56,302 nucleotides of DNA, taken from NCBI GenBank assembly GCA_007378955.1, contig VMGY01000005.1, forward strand, positions 1 to 56,302, written 5' to 3'. Shown piece by piece: positions 1 through 46,395 of the stretch (position 1 is its first letter; every line of letters starts with the position of its first letter). The notes under the pieces are model-generated. The model saw only the letters and a list, made by a program, of their open reading frames with translations. It was not told the origin of the DNA and made no database searches. Origin of the DNA: Parcubacteria group bacterium Athens0714_12 (lineage in GTDB: Bacteria; Patescibacteriota; Patescibacteriia; UBA2591; VMGY01). A program made the translations under genes and the position numbers.

Positions 1-868
1 TTTAGGCGGGACTTTTGAAAGAATTGACGATTTAAACAAAGAAGGCGGGGGTTTAAGAGGATTATCCACCGGCTTTAATGATTTGGATAATATGCTGGCG
101 GGCTTTCAAAAGTCTGATTTGATTATTTTAGCCTCAAGGCCAAGCGCGGGAAAAACTTCTTTGGCGCTTAATTTCGCCCGCAATATCGCCGTAAAAAACA
201 AAAAAATAGTGGGTATTTTCAGCTTAGAAATGTCCAAAGAGCAATTAGTTGACCGATTAATCTGTTCTGAAGCGGGAATTGATTTATGGAAAATGAGGAC
301 TGGAAAATTATCGCACCGTGAAGACTCTAATGATTTTACTCATTTAGGCAAAGCTTTTGGCGTCTTGGGAGAAACATTAATCTATATTGACGACTCCCCT
401 TCAGCCACTATCTTGGAAATCAGCACCAAAGCTAGGCGCTTAAAATCAGAGCACGGCCTGGATTTTATTGTCATAGATTATCTTCAATTGATGCAGGGAA
501 GGGCATCAATAGAAAACAGAGTTTTAGAGGTGGCGGAAATCAGTCGCGGCTTAAAAGCGATTGCCCGTGAATTGGACATTCCTGTTTTAGCCCTTTCCCA
601 GCTTTCCCGCGCCGTAGAGTCGCGCCATCCGCCCATCCCGAAATTATCCGACCTTCGCGAAAGCGGAAGCATAGAACAGGATAGCGATGTGGTGATGTTT
701 ATTTACCGAGAAGCAATGTATAAAAAAGACACCCCCCGCCGCCACATCGCCGATATTCATATCGCCAAACACCGAAACGGCCCGACCGGCACAATAGAAT
801 TATATTTTGATGAAAACCAAGTTGCTTTTAAAAATTTGGAAAAGAAAGAAGACGAGATAGAATTTTAA
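1..868 (+). CDS. dnaB: Replicative DNA helicase DnaB, C-terminal RecA-like domain; the 5' end lies outside the window
   Basis: The frame is open from position 2 with no stop codons. It encodes ...GLSTGFNDLDNMLAG...DLIILASRPSAGKTSLALNF (Walker A) ...IVIDYLQLM... and ends at 868. Confidence 0.85.
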   Translation, partial: LGGTFERIDDLNKEGGGLRGLSTGFNDLDNMLAGFQKSDLIILASRPSAGKTSLALNFARNIAVKNKKIVGIFSLEMSKEQLVDRLICSEAGIDLWKMRTGKLSHREDSNDFTHLGKAFGVLGETLIYIDDSPSATILEISTKARRLKSEHGLDFIVIDYLQLMQGRASIENRVLEVAEISRGLKAIARELDIPVLALSQLSRAVESRHPPIPKLSDLRESGSIEQDSDVVMFIYREAMYKKDTPRRHIADIHIAKHRNGPTGTIELYFDENQVAFKNLEKKEDEIEF

Positions 869-877
869 AAAAATGGC

Positions 878-1477
878 ATGTACTCATCCCCTATTCAAAA
901 TTTAATTGATGAATTTAACAAGCTTCCCGGCATTGGCCCTAAAACCAGCGAACGGTTTGTTTTTTATTTATTAAAAAAACCAAAAGAAGAAGTGGAAAAA
1001 TTTATCTGGGCGATTAAATGCCTTCGAGAAAAAATTACTCTCTGTTCCCAATGTTTTAATTTCTCCGAAAAAAATCCTTGTTTCACCTGCGCCAATCCAA
1101 AAAGAAACCATTCGATGATTTGCGTCGTGGCCGAACCGCAGGATATCGCCGTCTTGGAAAAAACAAAAGAATACCAAGGCGTTTACTTTGTTTTAGGCGG
1201 ACTTTTAAATTCCATCAGAGGAATTACGCCGGAAAAATTAAGAATCAAACAATTAATAAAAAAAATTTCTTTGCGGCAACCGCCAGTCAAAGAAATCATT
1301 TTGGCTTTAAATCCAAATTTGGAAGGAGAAAGCACGGTTTTGTATTTAACCAAACTTTTAAAAACCCGCGAAATAAAAATAACCCGCTTAGCCCAAGGAT
1401 TGCCGATGGGCAGCGAGCTGGAATACGCCGACGAAGTAACTTTATCTAACGCTCTAAAAGGCAGAAGAGAAGTTTAA
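878..1477 (+). CDS. recR: Recombination protein RecR
   Basis: HhH motif LPGIGPKTSERFVFYLL; C4 zinc finger CSQCFNFSEKNPCFTC; Toprim motif ICVVAEPQDIAVLE. Confidence 0.85.
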   Translation: MYSSPIQNLIDEFNKLPGIGPKTSERFVFYLLKKPKEEVEKFIWAIKCLREKITLCSQCFNFSEKNPCFTCANPKRNHSMICVVAEPQDIAVLEKTKEYQGVYFVLGGLLNSIRGITPEKLRIKQLIKKISLRQPPVKEIILALNPNLEGESTVLYLTKLLKTREIKITRLAQGLPMGSELEYADEVTLSNALKGRREV

Positions 1478-1478
1478 T

Positions 1479-1499
1479 TATGGAGGTTGAACCTCCATA
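1479..1499. repeat. REP palindrome tatggaggttgaacctccata (5' REP of the REPtron)
   Basis: Perfect 21-nt palindrome immediately after the recR stop and 10 bp upstream of the RAYT start. Confidence 0.7.
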
Positions 1500-1508
1500 G
1501 ATTTATTT

Positions 1509-2192
1509 ATGAAAAAACCAATCTTTGCAAAAGACCAAATTTACCATATCTATAATAGAGGAGTGGAAAAAAGAAATATCTTTTTGGATAGTCAGGATTA
1601 TTTTCGTTTTATTCATAATCTTTTTGAATTTAACGATGAAAATCATTCTTTTAATTTCAACCATTATTTCAACTCTCAAACTATGGAGGTTGAACCTCAA
1701 TATTTGAAAAAACAAAAAAAACCACGGGAACTCTTAGTAGAAATTCTGATTTTTACTCTAATGCCAAACCATTTTCATCTACTTGTAAGACAAAAAAGAG
1801 AAAATGGTATCGTAAAATTTATGCAAAAGTTAGGAACTGGCTATGCTATGTATTTCAATCAAAAACACAATAGAGTTGGCGGGTTATTTCAGGGAAGGTT
1901 TAAAGCTGTAATTATAAAAGAAGATGCGCACTTCGCTCATCTTCCCTATTATATTCATGCAAATCCTTTAAAATTAATAATGCCTGATTGGAAAACAGAA
2001 GGCGTTAAAGACTATAAAAAAGCGATAAAATTTTTAGAAAATTATCGCTGGTCAAGTTTTTTAGATTATACCGGCAAAAAAAATTTTCCTTCAGTAACTC
2101 AAAGAGAGTTTTTTCTTGATATTTTTGAAGGATGTGAAAACTACAAAGAACAAACAAAAAAATGGCTGAAAGAAATGAGCCTGAAAAAATAA
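1509..2192 (+). CDS. IS200/IS605-like Y1 HUH transposase; a REP-associated tyrosine transposase (RAYT)
   Basis: HUH motif LMPNHFHLLV. Catalytic Tyr region GTGYAMYFNQKHNRVGGLFQGRFKA, typical of Transposase_17. It is flanked by inverted REP palindromes. A REP-like half site (ctatggaggttgaacctcaata, 1681-1702) lies inside its own coding sequence. Confidence 0.8.
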   Translation: MKKPIFAKDQIYHIYNRGVEKRNIFLDSQDYFRFIHNLFEFNDENHSFNFNHYFNSQTMEVEPQYLKKQKKPRELLVEILIFTLMPNHFHLLVRQKRENGIVKFMQKLGTGYAMYFNQKHNRVGGLFQGRFKAVIIKEDAHFAHLPYYIHANPLKLIMPDWKTEGVKDYKKAIKFLENYRWSSFLDYTGKKNFPSVTQREFFLDIFEGCENYKEQTKKWLKEMSLKK

Positions 2193-2212
2193 AAGATGTG
2201 GCTTTAGATTAA

Positions 2213-2235
2213 CTATGGAGGTTCAACCTCCATAG
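2213..2235. repeat. REP palindrome ctatggaggttcaacctccatag (3' REP, inverted relative to the 5' copy)
   Basis: Same palindrome with the centre flipped (ggttcaacc versus ggttgaacc); it lies 20 bp after the RAYT stop. Confidence 0.7.
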
Positions 2236-2257
2236 TTGAGATTTTCAACCTTTATTA

Positions 2258-5056
2258 TTATTCTTCCCAAATTTTCTCAAAAAATCCCAAAGGAATTAGT
2301 TTGATATTTTGATGGACTGGCTGGCCTTCAGCCACAAAAAATTCTTCAGATTTATAAATTTTATATCCTTTTGCTTTTGCTTCTAAATAATATTTGCCTT
2401 GTGGCGTTAAAAAAGAATATTGGCCTGTTTTATCCGTGATTTGCGGATTTTTTTGGTCATATTTTCCCGCTTGCCAAATTTCAAATTTTTCTGTTTGCGG
2501 ATTGAAAAAATAAATAGTGATTTCAGCCTGCGGAATCCTGGTTTCTTTATCTTTGACTTCCTCGCTAAAAACATATCCTTCCGGGTCAATTAAAATTTCT
2601 GTTTCTATTATTTTATCCTCGCCGTCCGCGTAATTAATCACTGTGGCAAGGGAAAATTGACCGGCAACGGGCGGCAATTGGATTTCCGCCTCATAAATTC
2701 CGTCTTTATCGGGGTCGCTGTAAATAAATTCGCCAATCAGCCATTCTTTCGCCTGCGCGGCGTCAAAAACCGCGTCAAAAATACCGGCTACTTCTTGGGC
2801 TTGCGCGAAGGGAATACTAAGTGTCATTGCGAGGAGCGAACGCAGGGATTTGCTTACATTGTCATTGCGAGGAGCGACTGAAGCGAAGCGGAAAGAGCGA
2901 CGAAGCAATCCCGTTGTCTGTTGCATTCCCATCGGGATTGCCGCGCTCAACTGCCTGCTGGCAGCCTCGCTCGCAATGACGTTATTATTAGCCCGCGCCG
3001 ACAAAGATTTAATAAAAATCAACTTTCCCTTAATCTCTTTTGCCGGTTTTATTGGTTTAATAAAAGACTTAAAATTACTGCCGGCTATTAAAACTGCTTG
3101 CTCTTTTCCCGCGCTCTTTATTTTAATATTGCCAAAAGACGAAACAAACAGCGGTTTTTCCTCTAAAATTTGTTCTGGCGCCAAAGACGACTCCTTAACA
3201 ATAATCGGCGGTTCTATTGGCTGAACTTCTGTCGGCGGACTTGGCGGCTGTTTTTTCTCGCGCGTCTTTACCTCGGGTTTCAAAACTAAAAATATTTTCT
3301 TGCCTGTCTTATTTAAAGCAATAGCCGTATTTTTAACTGCCGTGGCAATGCCGCGGACAATCTTTAAAGAAAAACTCTGAATATTTTGGCCGGTTCCTTT
3401 AATTATTCTAAAACTGGATTGAAAAATTCCGCGGACAATAATCACTCCGGATTTTCCCAAATCTTTGCCCGCTTCTTTAATTTCCAGAAATGGATTTTTA
3501 ATTACATCTTCAAAATCAGAGAAAGCCAATTCTTTGATTTCCTGATAACTATCTTTCAAATTCTGCCCAATCGCCTGCCAATTTTTTTTAATCTCTTGCC
3601 TAATAGAAATCTTTTCTTTGATTGGCGATTCCATTATTGGCTTTTCAATAATTGGCAATCCTTCTTTAGAAATAATTTCTTCAATCGGAGTGATTTTTTC
3701 CGGAATAATTTCTCCCGGGGGTTCTTTTGGAATAATCTTTTCCCATTCTTTAACCGGCCGCTCAATTTCTTCCCATTTTATTGGCAAAACCGCGGGAATC
3801 TCCGGCGTTGTTGTTATCTCTTTCTCTATTATTTCAAAATAAATAATTTCTTCGGGGCTGAAATTTCCCGCCGCGTCTTGAGATTTAATAATTAATTTAT
3901 GTTTGCCCAATTTTAACGGGGTAATAATTTTATATGACCACTTGCCTTGTAAATCCGTCAGTGTCTGATAAAAAACGAAATCATCAAGACTGATAAAAAT
4001 CTTACTGTCGGGTTCAGCCGTCCCGGAAATAATCGGCGTCTTTTCTAAAATTTGCTCGCCATCGGCGGGATAAACAATAATCAAACCATCCGGCGACAAA
4101 GTGTCTAAAATAATAGAATCTGAAATCACTTGCGAGGCAACGCCGCCCGGACTTCTGAATTTGGCGTAGACATTTTTCACGCCGTCGCCTATCTCCAAAT
4201 ACCAAATTCTATTCTCTTGATAATTTTCCCAGCTAATTCCCTCAAAACTTTCTTTATTGGAAACAGCCATTTGGCTGGCGTTTTCAGCCGACAAACTTAA
4301 AACAACTCTTCTGGAATAAGTATATAACGCGCCTTTATCAATCAGTAAAGAAGCTGGTTTCCGCTCTGTCGCCTGCTCCCCGGAAACCACTTGCGGCGGT
4401 GGCGGCAGGCCAGGTCCGCCACCTGCCGTCATACAAGCAGACGTATTAAAAGTACAATTAGAACTGCATCCTAATGTCCCAGCGGTAAAACCCCGGCTTA
4501 AACAAGTTGCTCCACCCAATAAAGAGCCGTCGCACTGCTCCCCTGTTTCTAAAAGTCCGTTGCCGCAAGTCAAAGTAACCCAATTTGTTTTTACTTTATA
4601 ATCCACGTCAACGCAAGAGCCGGTTTTAAGACAATTAAAAACAATCCAGCCGATGTTTTCACCCCAAGCGTATCCGTTAAAATTTCCCACTGAATCAATG
4701 GTTACGCCGCCGTAAGTTGGATTAAAATTTATCCAACCCGTATTCTCGCCCCAACCGTAGCCAGTCAAATTCCCGTTAACATCATTACTCACTCCGCCGT
4801 AGACAGGGCTTAAATCAATCCAGCCGGCATTTTCAGCCCAAACATAACCGGAAAGGCCGGTATCTGTTACTTGCACATTGCCTTCTGAACTGCCAAAATT
4901 AAGCCAGCCGATATTTTCACCCCAAGCGTATTTATAATTCGCGTCAATAGTTCCCGTAGTTTCCGCCGCAAACGCAAAATTAACAGTTATCAACTGCCCT
5001 ATTAAAGCAAAAAGTAATATGATAGTAATAAATTTATTTCGCCTCATTAATTTCAT
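2258..5056 (-). CDS. Large secreted or surface repeat protein. It has a signal peptide, four GYAWGENIGWINF-type repeats, a Myxococcus-type cysteine-rich repeat, a poly-Pro stretch, an Ig-like region, a PE-rich linker and a C-terminal prealbumin/CarboxypepD_reg-like domain.
   Basis: N-terminus MKLMRRNKFITIILLFALIGQLITVNFAFA (signal peptide). Repeats (GY[AV]W[GA]EN[IAT]GW[IL][NDV][FL]) occur four times. CGNGLLETGEQCDG...C matches the TIGR02232-like cysteine repeat. PGLPPPPQ follows. A MITE-like element (2825-2985) is carried in-frame. Confidence 0.6.
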   Translation of the reverse strand: MKLMRRNKFITIILLFALIGQLITVNFAFAAETTGTIDANYKYAWGENIGWLNFGSSEGNVQVTDTGLSGYVWAENAGWIDLSPVYGGVSNDVNGNLTGYGWGENTGWINFNPTYGGVTIDSVGNFNGYAWGENIGWIVFNCLKTGSCVDVDYKVKTNWVTLTCGNGLLETGEQCDGSLLGGATCLSRGFTAGTLGCSSNCTFNTSACMTAGGGPGLPPPPQVVSGEQATERKPASLLIDKGALYTYSRRVVLSLSAENASQMAVSNKESFEGISWENYQENRIWYLEIGDGVKNVYAKFRSPGGVASQVISDSIILDTLSPDGLIIVYPADGEQILEKTPIISGTAEPDSKIFISLDDFVFYQTLTDLQGKWSYKIITPLKLGKHKLIIKSQDAAGNFSPEEIIYFEIIEKEITTTPEIPAVLPIKWEEIERPVKEWEKIIPKEPPGEIIPEKITPIEEIISKEGLPIIEKPIMESPIKEKISIRQEIKKNWQAIGQNLKDSYQEIKELAFSDFEDVIKNPFLEIKEAGKDLGKSGVIIVRGIFQSSFRIIKGTGQNIQSFSLKIVRGIATAVKNTAIALNKTGKKIFLVLKPEVKTREKKQPPSPPTEVQPIEPPIIVKESSLAPEQILEEKPLFVSSFGNIKIKSAGKEQAVLIAGSNFKSFIKPIKPAKEIKGKLIFIKSLSARANNNVIASEAASRQLSAAIPMGMQQTTGLLRRSFRFASVAPRNDNVSKSLRSLLAMTLSIPFAQAQEVAGIFDAVFDAAQAKEWLIGEFIYSDPDKDGIYEAEIQLPPVAGQFSLATVINYADGEDKIIETEILIDPEGYVFSEEVKDKETRIPQAEITIYFFNPQTEKFEIWQAGKYDQKNPQITDKTGQYSFLTPQGKYYLEAKAKGYKIYKSEEFFVAEGQPVHQNIKLIPLGFFEKIWEE
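2825..2985. repeat. MITE-like palindromic element, family 1 (gtcattgcgagg...cctcgcaatgac), copy A, inside the surface-protein CDS
   Basis: One partial and one full unit: gtcattgcgaggagcga... then gtcattgcgaggagcgactgaagcgaagc...gcaatcccg...gggattgc...cctcgctcgcaatgac. The host ORF stays open across it. Confidence 0.7.
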
Positions 5057-5105
5057 TGAGATGGTTACAAAACTATTTCGCTACGCAACTTATTACGCAG
5101 TAGGT

Positions 5106-5789
5106 CTATTTCGCCTGTATAATAATCTTGTTCGCGATAGAAAAAATTTCTTTTTTAAAAAATTTTTTAACCTCCCGCCAGCCGGCTTTAAAATAAATTT
5201 CCGGCTCTGGATCGTCTTCGGCGTCTTCAAAATACGCCAAACTCTTTAAGATATGATGAAAATTATGAGCGACAGAGGGATATTGAGCGGGCAGTCTTTT
5301 GATTATATTCTCCAGAGATTCAATGTTTTTCGCGCACCAATACGCGTCAAAAAAATCTCTTTTTTTGCCTCGCTGGGATATGGCAATAATCTTCATCACG
5401 GCAATGTCAATCGGTTGAAGTATTTTGATTGAGCCATACCGAATAAATTCTTGTTTGGGAATAAAAAAGGGATAAGCGATAAAACTTGCCTTCGCGCCGA
5501 ATAATTCGCCATATATGGTATTATCTTCTTCAAAATTAATCTTCCAATTATCATTGCCAATGAAATGAGTTATAATCGCGCTTGATTTAAAATTAGCATT
5601 TTGATTAAAAAAATCTAAATCAACCGATTTGCGACAACCTGTTTGCAACGTTAATGCCGTGCCGCCGGCTAAATACCATTTAGATTTTAAAAGCCACTTT
5701 TGTTCAGACAAAAAAACAAACGCCTTTTTTGTTTCAGACGGCAAAATTTTTGAATTGATATCTATTTGTTTTTTAAAAGCAGTGTCCAC
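5106..5789 (-). CDS. Nucleotidyltransferase of the AbiEii/AbiGii (DUF1814) toxin family
   Basis: WYLAGGTALTLQTGCRKSVDLDFF matches the AbiEii NTase core (GG[TS]AL...R.S.D[IL]DF). Size is 227 aa. It overlaps the small upstream ORF by 28 bp. Confidence 0.6.
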   Translation of the reverse strand: MDTAFKKQIDINSKILPSETKKAFVFLSEQKWLLKSKWYLAGGTALTLQTGCRKSVDLDFFNQNANFKSSAIITHFIGNDNWKINFEEDNTIYGELFGAKASFIAYPFFIPKQEFIRYGSIKILQPIDIAVMKIIAISQRGKKRDFFDAYWCAKNIESLENIIKRLPAQYPSVAHNFHHILKSLAYFEDAEDDPEPEIYFKAGWREVKKFFKKEIFSIANKIIIQAK

Positions 5790-5989
5790 AAATTTTTAGT
5801 TCTAGGCCTTAATGACCTTGATTTTGCTACGACTTTTTTGAGTAGCGGCTTATCATAAAAATCATAAAGCCACTTAACTTCTTTGTCATTGCCAAAATCC
5901 AAAATACGCTCAATAACATATTGGGCATTTTTTTTCGCGTCTATTTTGCGCGGATTGACATCCCAGAATAATACTTGTCTAAATTTCAT
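5762..5989 (-). CDS. Small conserved partner protein upstream of the AbiEii-family NTase; putative antitoxin-like
   Basis: 75 aa (MKFRQVLFWDVNPRKID...YVIERILDFGNDKEVKWLYDFY). It is translationally coupled with and overlaps the NTase gene. The function is inferred from this arrangement only. Confidence 0.4.
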   Translation of the reverse strand: MKFRQVLFWDVNPRKIDAKKNAQYVIERILDFGNDKEVKWLYDFYDKPLLKKVVAKSRSLRPRTKNLWTLLLKNK

Positions 5990-6302
5990 ATGCTTATTTT
6001 ATCAAAATTTACCGCGACTTGCAATTTTTCAAATTGGTATATTATACATTGATAACATATAATATTTAACAAATATTTCAAAATATCCGTCTATGTAATT
6101 ATTATACTTTATCTTGCCCATTTTTGCCAACCGCCGATCATTCTGCCAATTTCGGCCATTTCTTTTTGGGCTATCGTAAATGCTGATTATACTGATTTTA
6201 TTATCAGTGATATCACGGATTAAACCTGCCTATGTTATAATAAAATATAATCGTTTTTCATTTCCTCTATGAATAATTATACCACAAAATCCGATATACC
6301 GC

Positions 6303-6340
6303 ATTACGAGAGAGAGAGAGAGAGAGAGAGAGTAAAACAC
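6303..6340. repeat. (GA)12.5 microsatellite inside a ~37-bp inverted repeat; left boundary of the DGR cassette
   Basis: cattacGAGAG...GAGtaaaac. It is the reverse complement of 9590-9630 (caatacGAG..GAGagtaaat). Both runs are exactly 25 nt. Confidence 0.8.
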
Positions 6341-7202
6341 ACGCTACCAATTTTTTCAACTTTCAAAATCTCCTCAAAGCGTATTATCAATGCCGAAAAC
6401 GGAAAAGAAAAACTGCCAATGCCGCTAAATTTGAATTAAATTTTGAAAAAGAACTTCTAAAACTGGAATGGGAACTGAAAAATCATACTTATCAGCCCGG
6501 CAGGTCAATCTGCTTTATTGTAACTGATCCCAAACCGCGCGAGGTTTTTGCCGCTGACTTCCGGGACAGGATTATCCACCATCTTTTAATAAATTTTTTG
6601 GAACCGATTTGGGAACCAAAATTTATCCATCATTCTTACTCCTGCCGCAAAAACAAATTCTGCAGCACATTAACAAGGGAATAAATTTCATCGGCTATAT
6701 TATCAAACCGCATTACACTCTTGTCAGAAGGCGGATTGTCAAAAATCTGAAAAGAAAATTATGGCAATTCAATCTTTCCTTGCGTTATTGCATTTTTCCC
6801 TGTCATTGCGAGCGAAGCGAAGCAATCCCGAGGCAAGACGCGACAAACCAACGGGATTGCCACAGTCGGTCGCCTGCTGGCGACCTCCTTCACAATGACA
6901 CTTCTAAGTTGTCATTGCGAGGAGCGACTGGAAGGAGCGACGAAGCAATCCCGTTCGCTAATCCTCGGGATTGCTTCGTCGCCTCTGCTGAGGCTCCTCG
7001 CAATGACAGCGATGAACAATTAAAACAAATCCTCTCTGTTATCAACTCTTATTACGGACAATTTAAGCATAGCAATACTTTTAATTTACGAAAACATCTT
7101 TATCAAAAACATTTTGGGATTTTAAAAAACTATCTTGAGCCGGCTGACCCCGTTAGATATGACTATTTCAAAATCAAAAATTTTAAAAAAATAAAAATCT
7201 AA
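6335..7202 (+). pseudogene. Remnant of a diversity-generating-retroelement reverse transcriptase. The N-terminus is cut by (GA)n, the catalytic domains 3-6 are deleted, there is a frameshift, and two MITE units are inserted.
   Basis: Frame 1 (6361-6681) reads NLLKAYYQCRKRKRKT...YQPGRSICFIVTDPKPREVFAADFRDRIIHHLLINFLEPIWEPKFIHHSYSCRKNK, which are RT domains 1-2 of DGR type. A stop follows. Frame 0 (6609-7202) reads GINFIGYIIKPHYTLVRRRIVKNLKRKL (thumb region) and ...SYYGQFKHSNTFNLRKHL (RT C-terminus). There is no YxDD region and no start codon. Confidence 0.75.
6801..7006. repeat. MITE-like element, family 1: two tandem units (6801-6900 and 6911-7006) inserted in the RT remnant
   Basis: Unit 2 is almost a perfect nested palindrome: gtcattgcgaggagc / gcgacgaagcaatcccg ... 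cgggattgcttcgtcgc / gctcctcgcaatgac. Confidence 0.75.
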
Positions 7203-7289
7203 CGGGGCTGATGAAAATTTCAGTCATTTTAAGAAACACGATATCCGCGATTCAAAAAAACTCAATGAAGCCAAAAGTTTTTTATGATT

Positions 7290-7436
7290 ATTGCCAAGAG
7301 AGCTAACGAACGCAACGCGAGTCATAAGTATTAGTCTTAAGATTGTTGTTCGTGTTGCCGTTGTTCAAGTTCACGTTCCACGCGTTGTGGGTATTGTTAG
7401 ATTTAGTAGTGGCTGACCAAAAGTTGTTACCGGCGT
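7290..7436 (-). repeat. DGR template repeat (TR); its sense is on the minus strand
   Basis: It is 147 bp with no indels relative to VR 8067-8213. Its AAC and AAT codons on the minus strand correspond to varied VR codons. The IMH*-like end is attgccaagagagctaacg. Confidence 0.8.
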
Positions 7437-7603
7437 AAATTTTTTTCCGCTATTTTTCCTTAACTGAATCAATCTTTGCCAAAGCAAAGTATAATTCAAT
7501 TGATACTTTATCCCGCAGTACTACGGGAAGCGGAATCGCAATAATTCTCAAACCCGCTTTTTGTTTGTCCTGCAGACGCGGGACTAAAACAAAAATTCTG
7601 GCT

Positions 7604-7969
7604 TCATTGAATTTTCCTTTTCAAATTATCAAAAAACCATTTTTCCCAACCAAATACCTGTTTAGAAATTTCCTCTAAAAAACGGCTTAAAAATTCTAAT
7701 TTTTTAACATTAATTACTTTCAAATCATAAGCCACTCTTAAATGAATTTTTAATCGTTCAATCCTCGCATTTATTTCCGAAAAATAAATCCCTTTATCTT
7801 CCTTGGAATTAGTTACAACAATCCAATCCAAAAGTTCGCCAACTATTTCTTTTAATTTTTGACCCAATGAATATTTATATTCTCTGGGAAAATTATGTGT
7901 CGTGCGATAAATTTCAAGATTTAAATCATATCCCTTTTGAAAAATTGGCAGATGAATATAACGCGACAT
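7604..7969 (-). CDS. avd: Four-helix-bundle protein (TIGR02436, the '23S rRNA IVS protein' family); Avd-like DGR accessory variability determinant
   Basis: LPIFQKGYDLNLEIYRTTHNFPREYKYSLGQKLKEIVGELL...RIERLKIHLRVAYDL fits the four-helix-bundle family. It lies between VR and TR, as in canonical DGRs. Confidence 0.65.
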   Translation of the reverse strand: MSRYIHLPIFQKGYDLNLEIYRTTHNFPREYKYSLGQKLKEIVGELLDWIVVTNSKEDKGIYFSEINARIERLKIHLRVAYDLKVINVKKLEFLSRFLEEISKQVFGWEKWFFDNLKRKIQ

Positions 7970-8066
7970 ATTCCTCCTTAAATATATACGCTAATAATGC
8001 CGAATCGATGTTTTATTAGTTTTATAAAAAAATAATTAAATTAAAAAAATCATAAAATTATAAAAT

Positions 8067-8213
8067 ATTGCCAAGGGGGCTAACGAACGCAACGCGAGTC
8101 ATAAGTATTAGTCTTAAGATTGGCGTTCGTGTAGCCGTGGTACAAGTACACGTCCCACGCGTTGTGGGTACCGTTAGATTTAGTAGTAGCCGACCAAAAG
8201 GAGTTACCGGCGT
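8067..8213 (-). repeat. DGR variable repeat (VR), covering the last 44 codons of the target gene plus 13 bp past its stop codon (the IMH-like end)
   Basis: It differs from TR at 12 TR-adenine positions: AAC>GCC, TAC x3, CAC, GAC, TCC; AAT>GGT; TCA>TCG. There is 1 silent non-A change and 2 changes in the GC-richer IMH end (ggggg versus gagag). Confidence 0.8.
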
Positions 8214-9540
8214 GGGGTATAACGGTTGAGGAGCTCCATGACCCGTCAATATACGCTTGCATCAATTCTTTTTGGTGGGGTAAACGCCAATTGCCATCTC
8301 CTAAGGCCTTACAACCGGTAATGTTCGGGGTGCTGGTTGCTGTAACACATCGGCAGGCATCATTACCGTCAGCAGTGCAGGTTCCTGGGTTTGCCCAACT
8401 TTCCGGCGCCCAGCAATTATTCGCCCACCACCAATTATGATCAGTTCCACTGTCTAAATAATCAGACCAAATTTGTCCTGTATTATTGTCTTGATAGCAA
8501 ACATCGCCCGCGCAAGCCGTAGAATCTCCTGTTTTGCAATAATTATTAGCCGCAGCGCATTGGGTCCAAGAAGCGGCAAAACTATCAGTCGGTCTTGCCC
8601 CGGCATCATTATAATCATCTACTCCGCCTAAGGCTTGAGTATAAAAAGCAAAATCTTCCACCGGACTGGTCGCCGAGCCATTTTTTATATTCACCACTGA
8701 AAACATATTTCTGTTATTCAAATATTCCAGCCGTTCTAAAATATTTCCGTCTATATTGGCGGAGATGGTGGTTGAACTATATCCGGACTTAGCGAGCGCG
8801 TCTAAATATTCGGCTCTGGTATAAGTCCAAGTGGTGGAGCTCGCCAAGGCGGTGGAAGCCGGCGCCGCATAATCATAGAGCGTTTTCTGCCAGCCGAAAA
8901 TATTAGCGGTGCTGGTGGCTGATGTGGAAGTGCCGATCGCGTCGTGCGTATACGCCTGCCCGGCGAATAAACTTGTTGAAGTGGCAGGGGTGGAAGTGTT
9001 CCAGCCGATTAAATAAGCGATACTGCCCCAAGCCCGAGTAGTTGAAGCGGTGGAGCTGGAAACAAGATATTTGAGGTCGGAATTGAGAAAATTTAAGTAT
9101 TCCGCTCGGCTGTTAGTCCATAAAGCAGTGGTTAACGCAGTGGAAGCCGGCGCGGTATAATCATAAAGAGTTTTCTGCCAGCCAAAAAGAGTTAAGGTGC
9201 TGGTGGCAACAGTGGAAGTGGCGATGGTGTCGCTAATCGCTTCCAAGCTGTCTGTGGTTCTGCTAAAAGTGTTATTGCTGTCTTTTGAAGCCATATCCAA
9301 TAAGGAATGCATGGTGGCGGCCGGGCTTGCCGAAGGCGTTAAACTGCCGGCGTAAGCGATCACCGTAATCACCAACACGGAAATAACCACAATCAACCCG
9401 TCAACAGCCAATTTATGGAGGTTCAACCTCCATATTGAGGTTGAACCTCCATATTCTTGTCCTTTTATCCTCTTGGATAATTTTTTTAGATAATCCTTTT
9501 TGTTTATTTGTTTCATAATTTTTCTCCAATAAAAAAACAC
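8080..9540 (-). CDS. DGR target (variable) protein. It has an N-terminal TM or signal segment, tandem ~85-aa Thr/Ser-rich repeats and a C-terminal DUF1566/C-type-lectin-like ligand-binding domain that holds the VR.
   Basis: C-terminus ...GDGNWRLPHQKELMQAYIDGS...FWSATTKSNGTHNAWDVYLYHGYTNANLKTNTYDSRCVR* (the DUF1566 hallmark ends in RCVR). The exact start is uncertain because a REP doublet (9412-9452) lies in-frame near the annotated N-terminus. Confidence 0.7.
   Translation of the reverse strand: MFFYWRKIMKQINKKDYLKKLSKRIKGQEYGGSTSIWRLNLHKLAVDGLIVVISVLVITVIAYAGSLTPSASPAATMHSLLDMASKDSNNTFSRTTDSLEAISDTIATSTVATSTLTLFGWQKTLYDYTAPASTALTTALWTNSRAEYLNFLNSDLKYLVSSSTASTTRAWGSIAYLIGWNTSTPATSTSLFAGQAYTHDAIGTSTSATSTANIFGWQKTLYDYAAPASTALASSTTWTYTRAEYLDALAKSGYSSTTISANIDGNILERLEYLNNRNMFSVVNIKNGSATSPVEDFAFYTQALGGVDDYNDAGARPTDSFAASWTQCAAANNYCKTGDSTACAGDVCYQDNNTGQIWSDYLDSGTDHNWWWANNCWAPESWANPGTCTADGNDACRCVTATSTPNITGCKALGDGNWRLPHQKELMQAYIDGSWSSSTVIPHAGNSFWSATTKSNGTHNAWDVYLYHGYTNANLKTNTYDSRCVR
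9412..9452. repeat. REP doublet: tatggaggttcaacctccata + ttg + aggttgaacctccatat (inverted pair)
   Basis: It has the same palindrome core as the RAYT-flanking REPs. It is translated in-frame (YGGSTSIWRLNLH) in the 5' extension of the DGR target ORF. Confidence 0.7.
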
Positions 9541-9589
9541 TATTAAAAACAGTGTTTTAAAAATATTTTAAAATTAAAAATTCGTAAGC

Positions 9590-9630
9590 GAAATTTACTC
9601 TCTCTCTCTCTCTCTCTCTCTCGTATTGGT
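9590..9630. repeat. (CT)12.5 microsatellite inside a ~37-bp inverted repeat; right boundary of the DGR cassette
   Basis: Reverse complement of 6303-6340. Confidence 0.8.
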
Positions 9631-9687
9631 TATTTTATTCCCTTTGCTCATATTTTAAATTCTACCACAAAATAAAAAGCAAAAAAA

Positions 9688-10092
9688 TTAACGAACAGTT
9701 GAGATAAATTCTTCAACATCTTTTAACCTATTTTGTAAAACATCATAGACAATATCATAATCTATTTTTTCGTAATCGTGAGCCATCACATTTCTAAAAC
9801 CTGTCATTCTCGCCATTTTTTCCGTCAATTCATTAGAAATCATTTTTTGTTCGTTTAAGATATAGAAACTTTCACTCATCGTGGATGGTTTGCGAAAATT
9901 TTTAGCGGAAACAATCGCCTCCGCCAAATCTATTACTGATTGGACGAGTAAATATAAGTATCTTTCCACCGCTCCTCTAATATTTATATCCCGCTCTATT
10001 TCTTTTCTTGAATAATTTTTATAATTCTCTAAAATTTTCAGGTATTTTTTAACAGCGCTGATTTTATTTTCAATGGCGGACAATTTTGTCAT
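9688..10092 (-). CDS. hepT: HepT-family toxin (HEPN domain; DUF86)
   Basis: R-x4-HxY HEPN motif FRNVMAHDY; 134 aa. It overlaps the upstream MNT gene in an ATGA overlap. Confidence 0.7.
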   Translation of the reverse strand: MTKLSAIENKISAVKKYLKILENYKNYSRKEIERDINIRGAVERYLYLLVQSVIDLAEAIVSAKNFRKPSTMSESFYILNEQKMISNELTEKMARMTGFRNVMAHDYEKIDYDIVYDVLQNRLKDVEEFISTVR

Positions 10093-10095
10093 ATT

Positions 10096-10500
10096 TTACG
10101 CTTTAGTTAAATTATGCCGCAAAAGCAAACTATGGAAATCAAAATATTCATTTAAAATTTTTGGCTCAATTAAAACCTTATACGGCTCCCGCTCAAAAAT
10201 TAATTTTCCTTCTTTAATTATATTGTATTTCAATTCAGGCCCTTCGGCAACATTCAAAACAACTAAATCCACTTTATCTGTCTTAAGCGTTCGGGATATT
10301 TTATCCATTAACTCGCACCTAAGATCAAAAATCTTTTTTTTATTTTTTTCGGCGAAATAAACGGCGAAATCGTAATCGCTCATTGGACCTTTTTTATTTT
10401 CCGCCGTTGAACCGAATAAATAAACCAAACCCACTTTTTTTAAAGAGCGAAAAACAGGAGATAAAATTTGAGAGATTTCTTTAATGCTTAAATCTTTCAT
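10096..10500 (-). CDS. mnt: MNT-family minimal nucleotidyltransferase antitoxin
   Basis: GS-x9-13-DxD motif LFGSTAENKKGPMSDYDFAV; 134 aa; it sits upstream of hepT. Confidence 0.7.
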   Translation of the reverse strand: MKDLSIKEISQILSPVFRSLKKVGLVYLFGSTAENKKGPMSDYDFAVYFAEKNKKKIFDLRCELMDKISRTLKTDKVDLVVLNVAEGPELKYNIIKEGKLIFEREPYKVLIEPKILNEYFDFHSLLLRHNLTKA

Positions 10501-10529
10501 TGCAAATTTTGAAAAAATGCCGAAAAAAT

Positions 10530-10546
10530 GTCAAGGTTGAACCTTG
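10530..10546. repeat. REP-related palindrome variant tcaaggttgaaccttga
   Basis: It has the same ggttgaacc core as the REPs but different outer arms. It lies between mnt and rplU. Confidence 0.5.
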
Positions 10547-10564
10547 ATATTTTCACCGAGTTGG

Positions 10565-10876
10565 TTAAATTTTTGTGATTTTGATTTTTGTATAAAGGGG
10601 ATGATAGCCTCTTTTTTTTCTATACCTGACTTTTGCTTTGAATTTAATGACCGTCACTTTTTCACTTCTTCCTTGTTCTAAAATTTCCGCTTCCACTTTC
10701 GCATTTTCCAAATAAGGCTGCCCTATTTTTACGCTTTCGTCATTTTCAGCCAATAATAAAACTTTATCAAAAACCGCCTTCTTTTGGTCGGAAGGTTCTA
10801 TTTTATCAATCTTAATAATATCTCCTTCTTTCACTTTATATTGTTTTCCTCCGGTTTCAATAACGGCAAAATTCAT
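10565..10876 (-). CDS. rplU: 50S ribosomal protein L21
   Basis: MNFAVIETGGKQYKVKEGDII... Confidence 0.85.
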   Translation of the reverse strand: MNFAVIETGGKQYKVKEGDIIKIDKIEPSDQKKAVFDKVLLLAENDESVKIGQPYLENAKVEAEILEQGRSEKVTVIKFKAKVRYRKKRGYHPLYTKIKITKI

Positions 10877-10928
10877 ATTTTTTAATTAATCTATTCAAAA
10901 ATTTAGTTTTTATGTTATTTTTTATATT

Positions 10929-12011
10929 CTACGCTTTATTTTTAATTTTGTAAACCCCCACCAAAAAAATAGCCAAAACAGCCATTAACCCCGATAAAAT
11001 CCCCATCGTGATTAACTTGCCTGAACTCTTAAGAAAAAAAGTTGATAAGCCGAAAATCAGAGATAAAAAATAAAGGAAAACCACTGCTTGGCGCGGTGAT
11101 AAGCCAATATCCAATAATCTGAAATGCAAATGTTTTTTATCGGCCAAAAAAGGAGAATGACGCTCCCAAAAAACGCGGCGGGCAATCACCCAAATCACAT
11201 CAATGACCGCGATGCCCATTACCAATAAAGTGGTGGCGAATTTTCCTCCGGAAATAATCGCTAAAACTCCCAGCATAAAACCGCAAAAAGTGCTCCCTCC
11301 TTCGCCTAAAAATATTTTAGCCGGATGCCAGTTGAAAATTAAAAAACCTAAACAAGCGCCGGCTAAAATTATCGCCAAAAGCCCGACTTCCGGCTGATAA
11401 AAAATAGTAAAAAGGCAAAGCCCGAAAATAATCAGGCCGCCGATGGCGGTGATACCGGAAACCAAGCCGTCCAAACCGTCTAAAAATTTAGTGGTGTAAA
11501 TCATTCCCAAAAGCCAAAAAAAAGTCAGTAAATCAGCTGGCCAAGAAAAATAATAAGGCGCTCCTTGAAAATTCAAAATAAAAAATTTATTTAATTCTAA
11601 ATTAATTATTCCGTTGAAAGGATTAGTGATGTATTTAACGCCGATGCCGCTGGCAATAATTGTCAAAACAGCCAGTAAAGGAAAAATAAATTGTTTCTTG
11701 GGCGGCAAATTATATTTATCATCCAAAAAACCCCCTGATATTAAAAACAAACCGGCGATAAAAATTCCTATCAATTGCTTTAAAGCGATTGACTTCCCTA
11801 AAATATAAGGCGTAAAAAAAGTGAAATAAGCCAAAACAATGAAAAAGCTTAAAAAAATAATTAAGCCGCCCAATAAAGGAATGGGGTGGCTGTGAATTTT
11901 TCGAGGGCTGGGATAATCAACGATTTTATTTTTTAAAGCAAATTTGCGGACAAAAGGAGTGAGAATCGCCGCCAATAAAAAAGTTGAAATAAAAGCTGAA
12001 AAATAATTCAT
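10929..12011 (-). CDS. Glycosyltransferase family 4 polyprenyl-phosphate sugar-1-phosphate transferase (MraY/WecA-like)
   Basis: Polytopic membrane protein. DYPSPRKIHSHPIPLLGG fits the D.P..RK.H..P.P..GG motif of the MraY/WecA family. Size is 360 aa. Confidence 0.6.
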   Translation of the reverse strand: MNYFSAFISTFLLAAILTPFVRKFALKNKIVDYPSPRKIHSHPIPLLGGLIIFLSFFIVLAYFTFFTPYILGKSIALKQLIGIFIAGLFLISGGFLDDKYNLPPKKQFIFPLLAVLTIIASGIGVKYITNPFNGIINLELNKFFILNFQGAPYYFSWPADLLTFFWLLGMIYTTKFLDGLDGLVSGITAIGGLIIFGLCLFTIFYQPEVGLLAIILAGACLGFLIFNWHPAKIFLGEGGSTFCGFMLGVLAIISGGKFATTLLVMGIAVIDVIWVIARRVFWERHSPFLADKKHLHFRLLDIGLSPRQAVVFLYFLSLIFGLSTFFLKSSGKLITMGILSGLMAVLAIFLVGVYKIKNKA

Positions 12012-46061: not shown

Positions 46062-46395
46062 TTTAATTCAATTCTAAAATTTAACTTTTGAATCATTAAA
46101 TTTCTTTGAATTACAAAATATAAATGAAGTATGGCAAAACACAAAGTATAGCTGGCGCTATCGGGTAGAAAAAGCGCAAATGCAAGCCAATGAGAGAAAA
46201 AAGAAAGATTTGTTTTAAATCCTTCTCACCCCCAGCCAACCACCTCGCGTTAATTTTTGAAAAAATAAAAAAGGCCTACTCATGCTAAAAAGCATTTTCG
46301 GCCTTGTAATTTTGGGCTGGCGGATAATATTTAATTATCCGCCAGCTTTTTTCTCTTTTTTAGAGGAGTCCTTTCCGGCTTGCCTCCAGAAAAAA

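Follow-up and report, generated by a model that had tools for sequence, protein, structure and literature searches.

Is a short HUH/Y1 tyrosine-transposase-like gene in a bacterium of the candidate phyla radiation (CPR) one half of a pair made up of repetitive extragenic palindromes (REPs) and a REP-associated tyrosine transposase (RAYT), or do the palindromes around it mark the ends of an insertion sequence (IS), host regulatory sites or something else? The question is raised by a gene on contig VMGY01000005.1 of Parcubacteria group bacterium Athens0714_12, of which a stretch of 56,302 nt, i.e., all the DNA at hand and hereafter the window, was analyzed. REP/RAYT systems have so far been characterised almost wholly in Proteobacteria, Cyanobacteria and Bacteroidetes. 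An earlier note, made from the letters of the window alone, had proposed a REPtron in a CPR-like genome, i.e., a RAYT-like gene with inverted REP flanks and dispersed copies, also inside a gene, and this proposal is supported by the signature and predicted fold of the protein and by flanking palindromes that are found across its family; the sources do name a CPR host (Parcubacteria group bacterium Athens1014_10 / Athens0714_12). We consider that the locus is probably a REP/RAYT-type system, in which a single-copy Y1 gene is bracketed by its cognate hairpins (the REPtron) and accompanied by a small population of dispersed hairpins. The elements concerned are as follows.

1479..1499 (no strand), upstream REP, an exact 21-nt perfect palindrome with a G centre
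1509..2192 (+ strand), HUH/Y1 tyrosine-transposase-like gene, 227 aa, RAYT-like, TnpAY1 class 2 with subclass 2.1-like motifs
1682..1702 (no strand), REP within the Y1 open reading frame (ORF), a full 21-mer with a G centre and 1 mismatch
2211..2237 (no strand), downstream REP, a perfect 27-nt palindrome AAC-TATGGAGGTTCAACCTCCATA-GTT with a C centre
9414..9453 (no strand), REP doublet, copies at 9414-9434 (C centre, exact) and 9433-9453 (G centre, 1 mismatch)
10531..10547 (no strand), sister-subfamily REP, TCAAGGTTGAACCTTGA, intergenic between rplU (L21) and an MNT-HepT toxin-antitoxin pair

The protein matched the Pfam family Y1_Tnp (36.2 bits, cut-off 23), which was the only match in a Pfam scan at E values up to 0.1, with no DnaA_C/HTH-like distal domain found. 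Its best NCBIfam match was REP_Tyr_transpos (42.6 bits, E 5e-11), against only 14.6 bits for transpos_IS200 (cut-off 55). The HUH motif PNHFHLL occupies residues 86-92. In two alignments, with 19 and 48 homologues (A1 and A2, respectively), H88 and H90 of this motif do not vary, and the FQ pair F127-Q128 (LFQGRF) is conserved as well. The catalytic tyrosine lies in Y148-I-H-A-N152-P153, where Y148 and N152 are invariant and P153 is present in at least 90% of the sequences, and a conserved YRWSS tail follows at residues 179-183. HFHLL had thus been read correctly as the HUH motif, but the segment Y...FNQKH..GG.FQGRF, named alongside it, is not the catalytic tyrosine motif. Many homologues have YIHLNP where the window protein has YIHANP, and members of the family are 227-240 aa long. 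As Y-x-x-x-N-P is the signature of TnpAY1 class 2 (the RAYT side) and Y-x-x-x-Q that of class 1 (IS200) (Quentin et al. 2018, PMC6006769), the tyrosine motif places the protein in class 2. Its AlphaFold2 model (predicted local distance difference test, pLDDT, 78), compared with the PDB by Foldseek, had as top match 4ER8_A (E 2.2e-5, template modelling score on the target 0.59), i.e., E. coli TnpA-REP in complex with a REP hairpin, while IS608 and ISDra2 TnpA came next at E 2e-3 or weaker, ca. 100-fold behind. PDB searches by sequence only, with the single sequence or a 19-sequence profile, did not reach 4ER8/TnpA-REP and gave merely a weak match of the HUH strand to ISDra2. Taken together, the motif, the profile scores and the modelled fold favour class 2 (RAYT) over class 1 (IS200), and the transposase does not group with ordinary IS200 TnpA, in line with the earlier proposal. 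The family is large, with 7118 clusters (90% identity) at E <=1e-5 and, among representatives at 50% identity, 381 with E<1e-30 and 6327 with E<1e-10; the named members are almost all Patescibacteria.

The 21-nt palindrome TATGGAGGTT[G/C]AACCTCCATA occurs five times in the window. When the pattern TATGGAGGTTSAACCTCCATA was searched with up to three mismatches, 100 dinucleotide-preserving shuffles yielded a mean of 0.00 and a maximum of 0 matches against the five real ones, and a 15-nt palindrome core recovered the same five sites against 0.03 expected. The upstream copy begins 1 nt past the recR stop codon and finishes 9 nt short of the Y1 start codon; the downstream one, 21 nt past the Y1 stop codon, lies ahead of a gene in convergent orientation (2258-5056), and its exact 21-mer (2214-2234) is the reverse complement of the upstream copy. 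The copy within the ORF, which translates as (T)MEVEPQY (residues 58-65 of the Y1 protein), had been taken for a half site and is in fact the full 21-mer with a single mismatch. In the doublet one copy has a C and the other a G centre, the two share 2 nt, and together they can be folded as one 17-bp hairpin (REPIN-like). All elements described in the earlier note are present, although their coordinates needed small corrections (to 1682-1702, 2214-2234, 9414-9453 and 10531-10547). The variant at 10531 differs from the main palindrome in two stem pairs, both compensated, and is identical to TCAAGGTTSAACCTTGA, which in another genome stands on both sides of P0002 (locus L172), the closest homologue of the Y1 gene, and for this reason we assign this orphan copy to a sister REP subfamily.

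Predicted single-stranded DNA (ssDNA) folds reached -7.7 kcal/mol for the upstream REP (z -4.3 against shuffled controls), -11.4 kcal/mol for the downstream REP (z -6.9), -18.1 kcal/mol for the doublet (z -7.6) and -8.8 kcal/mol for the 10531 variant. Both the upstream REP (after recR) and the 10531 variant (on the minus strand, after rplU) scored as terminator-like, and Rfam (models 1-11000) gave no relevant match. When perfect hairpins (stem >=8) were searched along the whole window, the REP copies, the 10531 variant and a few unrelated palindromes were returned; this search replaced one for inverted repeats at short distance, the output of which was mostly AT-rich noise. The longest hairpin other than a REP is an unrelated perfect palindrome at 46316-46346 with a 13-bp stem, GCTGGCGGATAATATTTAATTATCCGCCAGC. 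The remaining 46 kb of the window, with ribosomal-protein and other core operons, holds no REP copy.

Do hairpins accompany this gene elsewhere? Perfect hairpins were searched de novo around Y1 homologues (46-70% identity) in 80 metagenome loci. A palindrome centred ca. 30 nt before the start codon was present at 58 of 76 loci and another, ca. 50 nt after the gene, at 59 of 76. Within the ORF, 36 of the 80 loci carry a palindrome of the locus's own sequence at residues ~54-74 (site 1), and 16 of 80 carry one at residues ~153-165 (site 2). The architecture of the family thus comprises four fixed hairpin positions, i.e., upstream, site 1, site 2 and downstream. The palindrome varies widely from locus to locus (e.g., TATCGAGGTTGAACCTCGATA, TATTGACGTCCGACGTCAATA, TTACGAGGCTAAGCCTCGTAA, TGGGAAGATCATCTTCCCA and CCTGTGGATAACCGACTTGCGAAGTCGGTTATCCACAGG), and inside one locus all two to four sites share one sequence: 80% of palindrome pairs within a locus differ at no more than one of 14 arm nucleotides, versus 5% of pairs between loci. 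Divergence of the arms rises with that of the protein (Mantel rho 0.29, a value reached by 0 of 999 permutations). The hairpin sequence is therefore locus-specific and co-diverges with the Y1 protein, and the association of hairpin and gene holds over the whole family. Both-sided changes were seen at 12 of 13 stem pairs among 66 distinct variants, and as these had been preselected as palindromes it is not the pairing itself but the positions that never vary that are informative, namely G-C at +/-6 (66 of 66 variants), with A-T at +/-5 in 63 of 66. The family consensus reads TAT-N-GA-R-G-T-Y-G-R-A-C-Y-TC-N-ATA.

One homologue (L173 10001-10702, on the 585-kb contig Ga0315285_10000001) lies antisense in the middle of a type IV pilus cluster, between prepilin peptidase and pilin genes. 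Its hairpins are of a separate REP variant, TATGGGAGTTSAACTCCCATA, which stands upstream, at site 2 and downstream.

The two positions within the Y1 ORF both lie outside the interval between the HUH and tyrosine motifs and together bracket the catalytic core. In the AlphaFold2 model, site 1 falls in a disordered loop (pLDDT <50 at residues 50-66) between the helix 28-40 and the strand leading into the HUH motif, and site 2 immediately behind the helix that bears Y148. Among the 120 closest proteins, 23 show MEVEP or MEVQP at the position of site 1 (usually residue 59) and 18 show YGGST at residue 158-159. Both centre orientations are found at site 1, and all 13 of 13 pattern-matched copies at site 2 are C-centred, the sole orientation without a TGA stop in that phase. 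Given that the sequences of these copies track those of the flanking ones, homogenisation or replacement is at work here and not mere decay, and it may be due to selection, to gene conversion or to an exchange carried out by the enzyme. Subclass 2.4 is the only one for which REPs within a tnpA-REP gene are on record, and there they lie between the HUH and tyrosine motifs (PMC6006769); REPs inside the gene thus have a precedent, but none in this clade or at these positions.

How far is the palindrome dispersed beyond the window? The exact 21-mer was found in 84 stretches from ca. 38 of 185,579 species-representative genomes. The CPR lineages among them include Portnoy-, Sung-, Wolfe-, Niyogi- and Jorgensenbacteria as well as Saccharibacteria, and outside the CPR it occurs in Nitrospiraceae, Thermodesulfovibrionia, a Deferribacteres metagenome-assembled genome (MAG) and an Elusimicrobiota MAG, with 31% to 53% GC around the copies. 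Mis-binning as the sole cause of the matches across phyla is countered by three copies on a closed 3.17-Mb Nitrospiraceae chromosome (45% GC context), although some small contigs could be mis-binned, e.g., a 'Methanosarcinales' one. This contig (L057, CAYWLA010000091.1, 5.3 kb, 31% GC, labelled Methanosarcinales archaeon) carries the exact 21-mer, but this need not be a real occurrence in that archaeon, as the contig could come from a CPR or DPANN organism and have been mis-binned. A search of 2.9 million viral contigs gave 0 matches to the 21-mer and hence nothing that would point to a phage as its vector.

A Portnoybacteria genome carries at least 15 exact copies and a Sungbacteria genome at least 12, so that, with the five to six copies of the window, the palindrome is indeed present elsewhere, as had been anticipated. 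Each of these two genomes has one homologous Y1 gene with the 21-mer on its flanks, and homologues flanked by the 21-mer (40-68% identity) occur in all in Portnoybacteria, Sungbacteria, two Saccharibacteria and one Nitrospiraceae genome. Beyond the 21-nt core the outer stem is complementary too, and its sequence is genome-specific (AAC..GTT in Portnoybacteria, ATAATA..TATTAT in Sungbacteria, AAAG..CTTT in one Saccharibacteria genome), as would be expected if each genome amplifies its own master copy. The near identity of the copies makes it plausible, as the earlier note had suggested, that REPs are being disseminated actively or have been so recently. The consensus of flank and stem over the 21-mer copies is AAAN-TATNGA...TCNATA-NTTT.

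Larger units around the palindrome were seen in both genomes. In Sungbacteria MHQW01 (L008 ~4780-4880, L014 ~10-115, L070 ~6505-6610) the 21-mer is central in a repeated element of ca. 100 nt with its own terminal inverted repeats, AAGGCGGG...CCCGCCTT, which resembles a composite miniature inverted-repeat transposable element (MITE) around the REP. Copies in Portnoybacteria MHMZ01 (L043 ~740-810, L085 ~5285-5355, L086 ~380-450 and ~1015-1085) have longer flanks in common, ...GGACAGTCCTCGTAGGGATTGACTAC-REP-GTTTAATCTTTCCGCT..., which indicates that the REP is here part of a second, larger repeat. Doublets were also found elsewhere (L033 5931/5959, L035 7489/7519, L087 4010/4031, L046 809/832, L064 4861/4938), with start-to-start spacings of 21-30 nt in four cases and 77 nt in one and often with opposite centres; like the doublet of the window, these doublets from several genomes are candidates for REPIN-like units.

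Within stop-free ORFs of >=150 aa we found 34% of 114 copies, versus 79% for random positions, i.e., REP copies are depleted in genes, yet far from excluded from them. Judging by the Pfam domains on either side or around, intragenic copies lie in the inter-domain linker of a transketolase and the linker of a GT4 glycosyltransferase, and further host genes encode ATP synthase gamma, a Pyr_redox_2 oxidoreductase, a methylpurine-DNA glycosylase, a Wzy_C ligase and a PMT mannosyltransferase. Five stop-free combinations of phase and orientation are possible, yet 12 of the 14 copies located >=77 residues into their ORF read as (N)YGGSTSI(V). Such survival of essentially one phase points to selection that filters insertions, likely for a flexible Gly/Ser/Thr linker.

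How might the gene and the hairpins work together? With IS608/ISDra2 TnpA and the TnpA-REP of E. coli as models, we infer that the Y1 enzyme mobilises the hairpins, and its cleavage site and target are likewise putative. The palindrome would extrude as an ssDNA hairpin, e.g., on the lagging-strand template, and would be bound by a Y1 dimer, with the invariant G-A...T-C stem pairs and the loop as the likely determinants of specificity. Tyr148 would then cut at the foot of the hairpin and form a 5'-phosphotyrosine link, and the strand would be rejoined elsewhere, so that units of 21-33 nt could be copied or exchanged in trans.

Several observations weigh against the REP/RAYT assignment. The REP_Tyr_transpos score of 42.6 bits lies below the equivalog cut-off of 80, the window protein has FQ where the canonical W motif is WQ, and the repeat is a perfect, almost loop-less palindrome that lacks the 5' GT[AG]G foot. 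As the WQ motif reads GTAG in E. coli TnpA-REP (PMC6006769), the absence of the GTAG foot fits with FQ in place of WQ. Canonical repeats are extragenic, and ca. one third of the copies of the window type are intragenic. Relative to homologues without them, the copies in the Y1 ORF are not clean insertions (the palindrome of site 2 stands in place of a longer PEW...YKK segment), and no pair of filled and empty sites turned up for any of the palindromes, either in the protein cluster of the gene that hosts the doublet (an Lcl_C-domain protein, see below) or when the joined 60+60-nt flanks of 306 palindromes were searched with blast against 183 loci and the window; the only match that spanned a junction was at the Y1 gene itself (L022 vs L029) and was not a clean indel. 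Copy numbers are low, five to six in 56 kb and tens per genome, versus hundreds in Pseudomonas or E. coli. The context of the Y1 gene is not conserved even with respect to P0002 (79-81% identity), which lies beside a NUDIX gene, and the Y1 gene may itself move. The label RAYT holds as far as the class 2 signature and fold are concerned, but the protein is not a canonical one (score below the cut-off, no GTAG foot, FQ): the system behaves like a REP/RAYT pair yet lacks several traits of canonical RAYTs.

The mobility of the gene is central to a different explanation, namely an autonomous IS200/IS605-like IS, in which the flanking palindromes would be the ends, the gene would transpose and the solo palindromes would be MITE-like derivatives. 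We consider this unlikely, even though the gene has exact 21-bp terminal inverted repeats in its flanking copies, the distribution is patchy across phyla with an identical repeat, and the neighbourhood differs among relatives (P0002 is next to a NUDIX gene, and another homologue, P0032, lies antisense inside a type IV pilus operon). Neither recR nor dnaB nor the 932-aa neighbour of the window gene was found beside any homologous Y1 gene among the fetched loci, and the lack of a conserved neighbourhood suggests relocation or transfer of the Y1 gene over long periods. However, each of three populations has one invariant gene context (8 contigs for the window protein, 7 for P0032 and 21 for P0057), with one gene copy per window or contig set and a single one in the 56-kb window, and no tnpB neighbours the gene in any of the listed contexts (window protein, P0002, P0032, P0057), which would suit a RAYT rather than an active IS. 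The same palindrome stands at both ends where an IS of this type would have distinct left and right hairpins, an element of 0.75 kb cannot have left the in-frame copies of 21-27 nt in housekeeping genes as its footprints, and the absence of the 21-mer from viral contigs as well as the class 2 affinity of tyrosine motif, profile scores and fold argue in the same direction.

The terminator-like copies after recR and rplU, the consensus flanks AAA-N / N-TTT and the location of the downstream copy between convergent genes would all suit host cis-regulatory elements (bidirectional terminators, mRNA-stabilising hairpins or an operator) that are found next to the Y1 gene by chance. This we regard as very unlikely, considering that the association with Y1 is family-wide, that the palindrome changes along with the gene, that copies occur within ORFs, even that of Y1, where termination would be harmful, and that the T-tracts are just ca. 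3 nt long. Intergenic copies with A-tract/T-tract feet are plausibly terminator-like hairpins by secondary use. Mimicry of a tRNA T-arm, a -35 box in the loop and sequestration of the Shine-Dalgarno or anti-Shine-Dalgarno sequence were rejected by inspection as primary functions because other family members carry unrelated stems at the same positions. It is harder still to believe that the 21-mer serves naturally competent CPR bacteria and their neighbours in the uptake or recognition of DNA. In-frame, phase-biased occurrence is known for uptake signal and DNA uptake sequences (USS/DUS), and the strong bias of the in-frame copies to one peptide phase, together with an exact 21-mer in genomes of 31-53% GC from several phyla, would accord with this, but the density is far too low (ca. 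10-20 per ~1-Mb genome, three in the 3.2-Mb chromosome), other family members have quite different palindromes at the same four positions, and uptake sequences would not be expected to be tied so closely to a Y1 gene.

A further alternative would be a hairpin-exchange system rather than a classical REP/RAYT pair, run by a large, mainly CPR-borne clade similar to subclass 2.1, in which enzyme-driven replacement keeps four docking hairpins identical, YGGSTSI cassettes (7-11 codons) are written in frame into housekeeping genes, and transfer between phyla is recent. If so, the two hairpins in the ORF could act as a self-excision or self-limiting switch, and the core shared by CPR, Nitrospirota, Deferribacterota, Elusimicrobiota and others has possibly spread by transfer between epibionts and hosts. 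As a whole, we hold this proposal to be quite doubtful.

Where does the REP/RAYT-type system of the window stand among known systems? With the REPtrons of E. coli and Pseudomonas (subclasses 2.2 and 2.5, i.e., Bertels groups 2 and 3) it shares a Y-x-x-x-N-P HUH/Y1 gene between inverted hairpin repeats, a gene-specific repeat that diverges along with its gene and has further copies scattered through the genome, doublets that can be folded into a longer hairpin, and a fold nearest to 4ER8. Apart from the differences in foot, motif, NCBIfam score, copy number and intragenic copies given above, it is unlike REPtrons in that its repeat core is common to several phyla, whereas classical REPs are specific to a species or genus, and unlike the known ones in its CPR host. 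In its motifs it resembles the 'TIRtrons' of subclass 2.1/TIRYT (PMC3733652, PMC6006769), with NH[YF]H, FQ, Y[IV]H(L)NP, the 'SS' tail (YRWSS) and a length of ca. 230-240 aa, as compared by eye with Table 1 of PMC6006769; in both, the gene lies between terminal inverted repeats (TIRs), and those of TIRtrons can be self-complementary and sometimes form small families. This subclass (Bertels group 1, TIRYT; length ca. 238 aa) had yielded no REPs in automatic or manual searches (PMC6006769). Unlike subclass 2.1, the flanks here lack its TIR consensus GGGG[AT][CG]A[CG] and are perfect hairpins, with two further sites in the ORF, and the distal C-terminal helix-turn-helix/Bac_DnaA_C-like domain was not detected by Pfam.

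REPs in the transposase gene itself, with the frame kept and in surface-exposed regions, are shared with subclass 2.4 (Bertels group 4; Cyanobacteria, Bacteroidetes), as is the symmetric ('double foot') type of hairpin. The insertions of that subclass are, however, variable and lie between the HUH and tyrosine motifs, as opposed to two fixed sites outside that interval, and its motifs (WQ and YIxNNP) and REP feet (GT[AG]G/C[TC]AC) differ from those found here. Rickettsia palindromic elements (RPEs) and other intragenic REPs offer a parallel for short palindromes that stand in frame in conserved genes and that streamlined genomes accept in loops and linkers; RPE-1 measures 100-150 bp against 21-33 bp (7-11 codons) for the unit described here, which, unlike RPEs, occurs in nearly one phase only (YGGSTSI) and is tied to an identifiable cognate Y1 gene. 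The HUH/Y1 fold, and with it the expected recognition of ssDNA hairpins, is common to IS200/IS605 TnpA (IS608, ISDra2), but those proteins have a Y-x-x-x-Q motif in contrast to YIHANP, and their elements have distinct left and right ends, are present in multiple copies and often carry tnpB, as opposed to the same palindrome at both ends.

The doublet of the window lies in one further feature.

8080..9516 (- strand), doublet host gene, a membrane-anchored Lcl_C-domain protein and target of a diversity-generating retroelement (DGR), identified by Pfam Lcl_C and a template/variable repeat pair

The doublet had been assigned to the 5' region of a gene, and it does lie in the 5' part, but it is moreover in frame within the called coding sequence 8080-9516(-), where it encodes residues 21-34 (EYGGSTSIWRLNLH) ahead of the membrane anchor. 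An independent gene call also starts this coding sequence at 9516, with GGAG 7 nt upstream of the start. Two distant homologues, fragments retrieved with the N-terminal 200 aa of the protein, have different, shorter N-terminal tails followed by the same membrane anchor and AGSLTPS motif, and the cluster of the host protein at 90% identity contained REP-containing members only and none free of REPs. These data are consistent with an insertion of the doublet into the gene.

The DGR signature itself consists of 148-nt template and variable repeats (7289-7436 and 8066-8213) that are 90% identical and in which 12 of 15 differences fall at template adenines; the variable region lies at the 3' end of the target gene. 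A bAvd gene (7604-7969, minus strand) lies between the two repeats, and the adjoining 1.5 kb contains no reverse-transcriptase ORF, stop codons being abundant in all three frames of the minus strand. Ca. 80 nt upstream of the start of the target gene there is a (GA)12 run (TC on the plus strand, 9598-9622), which could be a slippage-prone tract of the promoter or 5' UTR. Two toxin-antitoxin-like pairs, i.e., AbiEii (5106-5789, minus strand) with DUF6922 (a small ORF upstream), and HepT with an MNT nucleotidyltransferase (9688-10092 / 10096-10500, minus strand), are located in the same 10-kb stretch as all REP copies.

What would such a system mean for the family and for its hosts? Each ingredient has a precedent, be it in REPtrons, in TIRtrons, in REPs inside tnpA-REP genes or in the in-frame RPEs of Rickettsia. 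Their combination (a CPR host, a tag-less perfect palindrome, four concertedly evolving sites, a core shared across phyla and the YGGSTSI bias) was absent from the literature that we searched, and full-text searches returned no paper tying REP/RAYT to CPR/Patescibacteria and none with this palindrome. For those who work with CPR MAGs there is a practical side as well, since perfect palindromes of this kind will break assemblies and mislead gene callers. If our reading is true, a very large Y1 clade with the motifs of a REP-less subclass does have cognate hairpins, and the description of that subclass would have to be revised. Dozens of co-varying pairs of enzyme and hairpin, with their invariant G-A...T-C, would provide a clean natural data set on hairpin recognition, and the phase bias of YGGSTSI another on the insertion of peptides in frame under selection. 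It would also mean that an intragenomic replicator can persist even in streamlined genomes of ca. 1 Mb.

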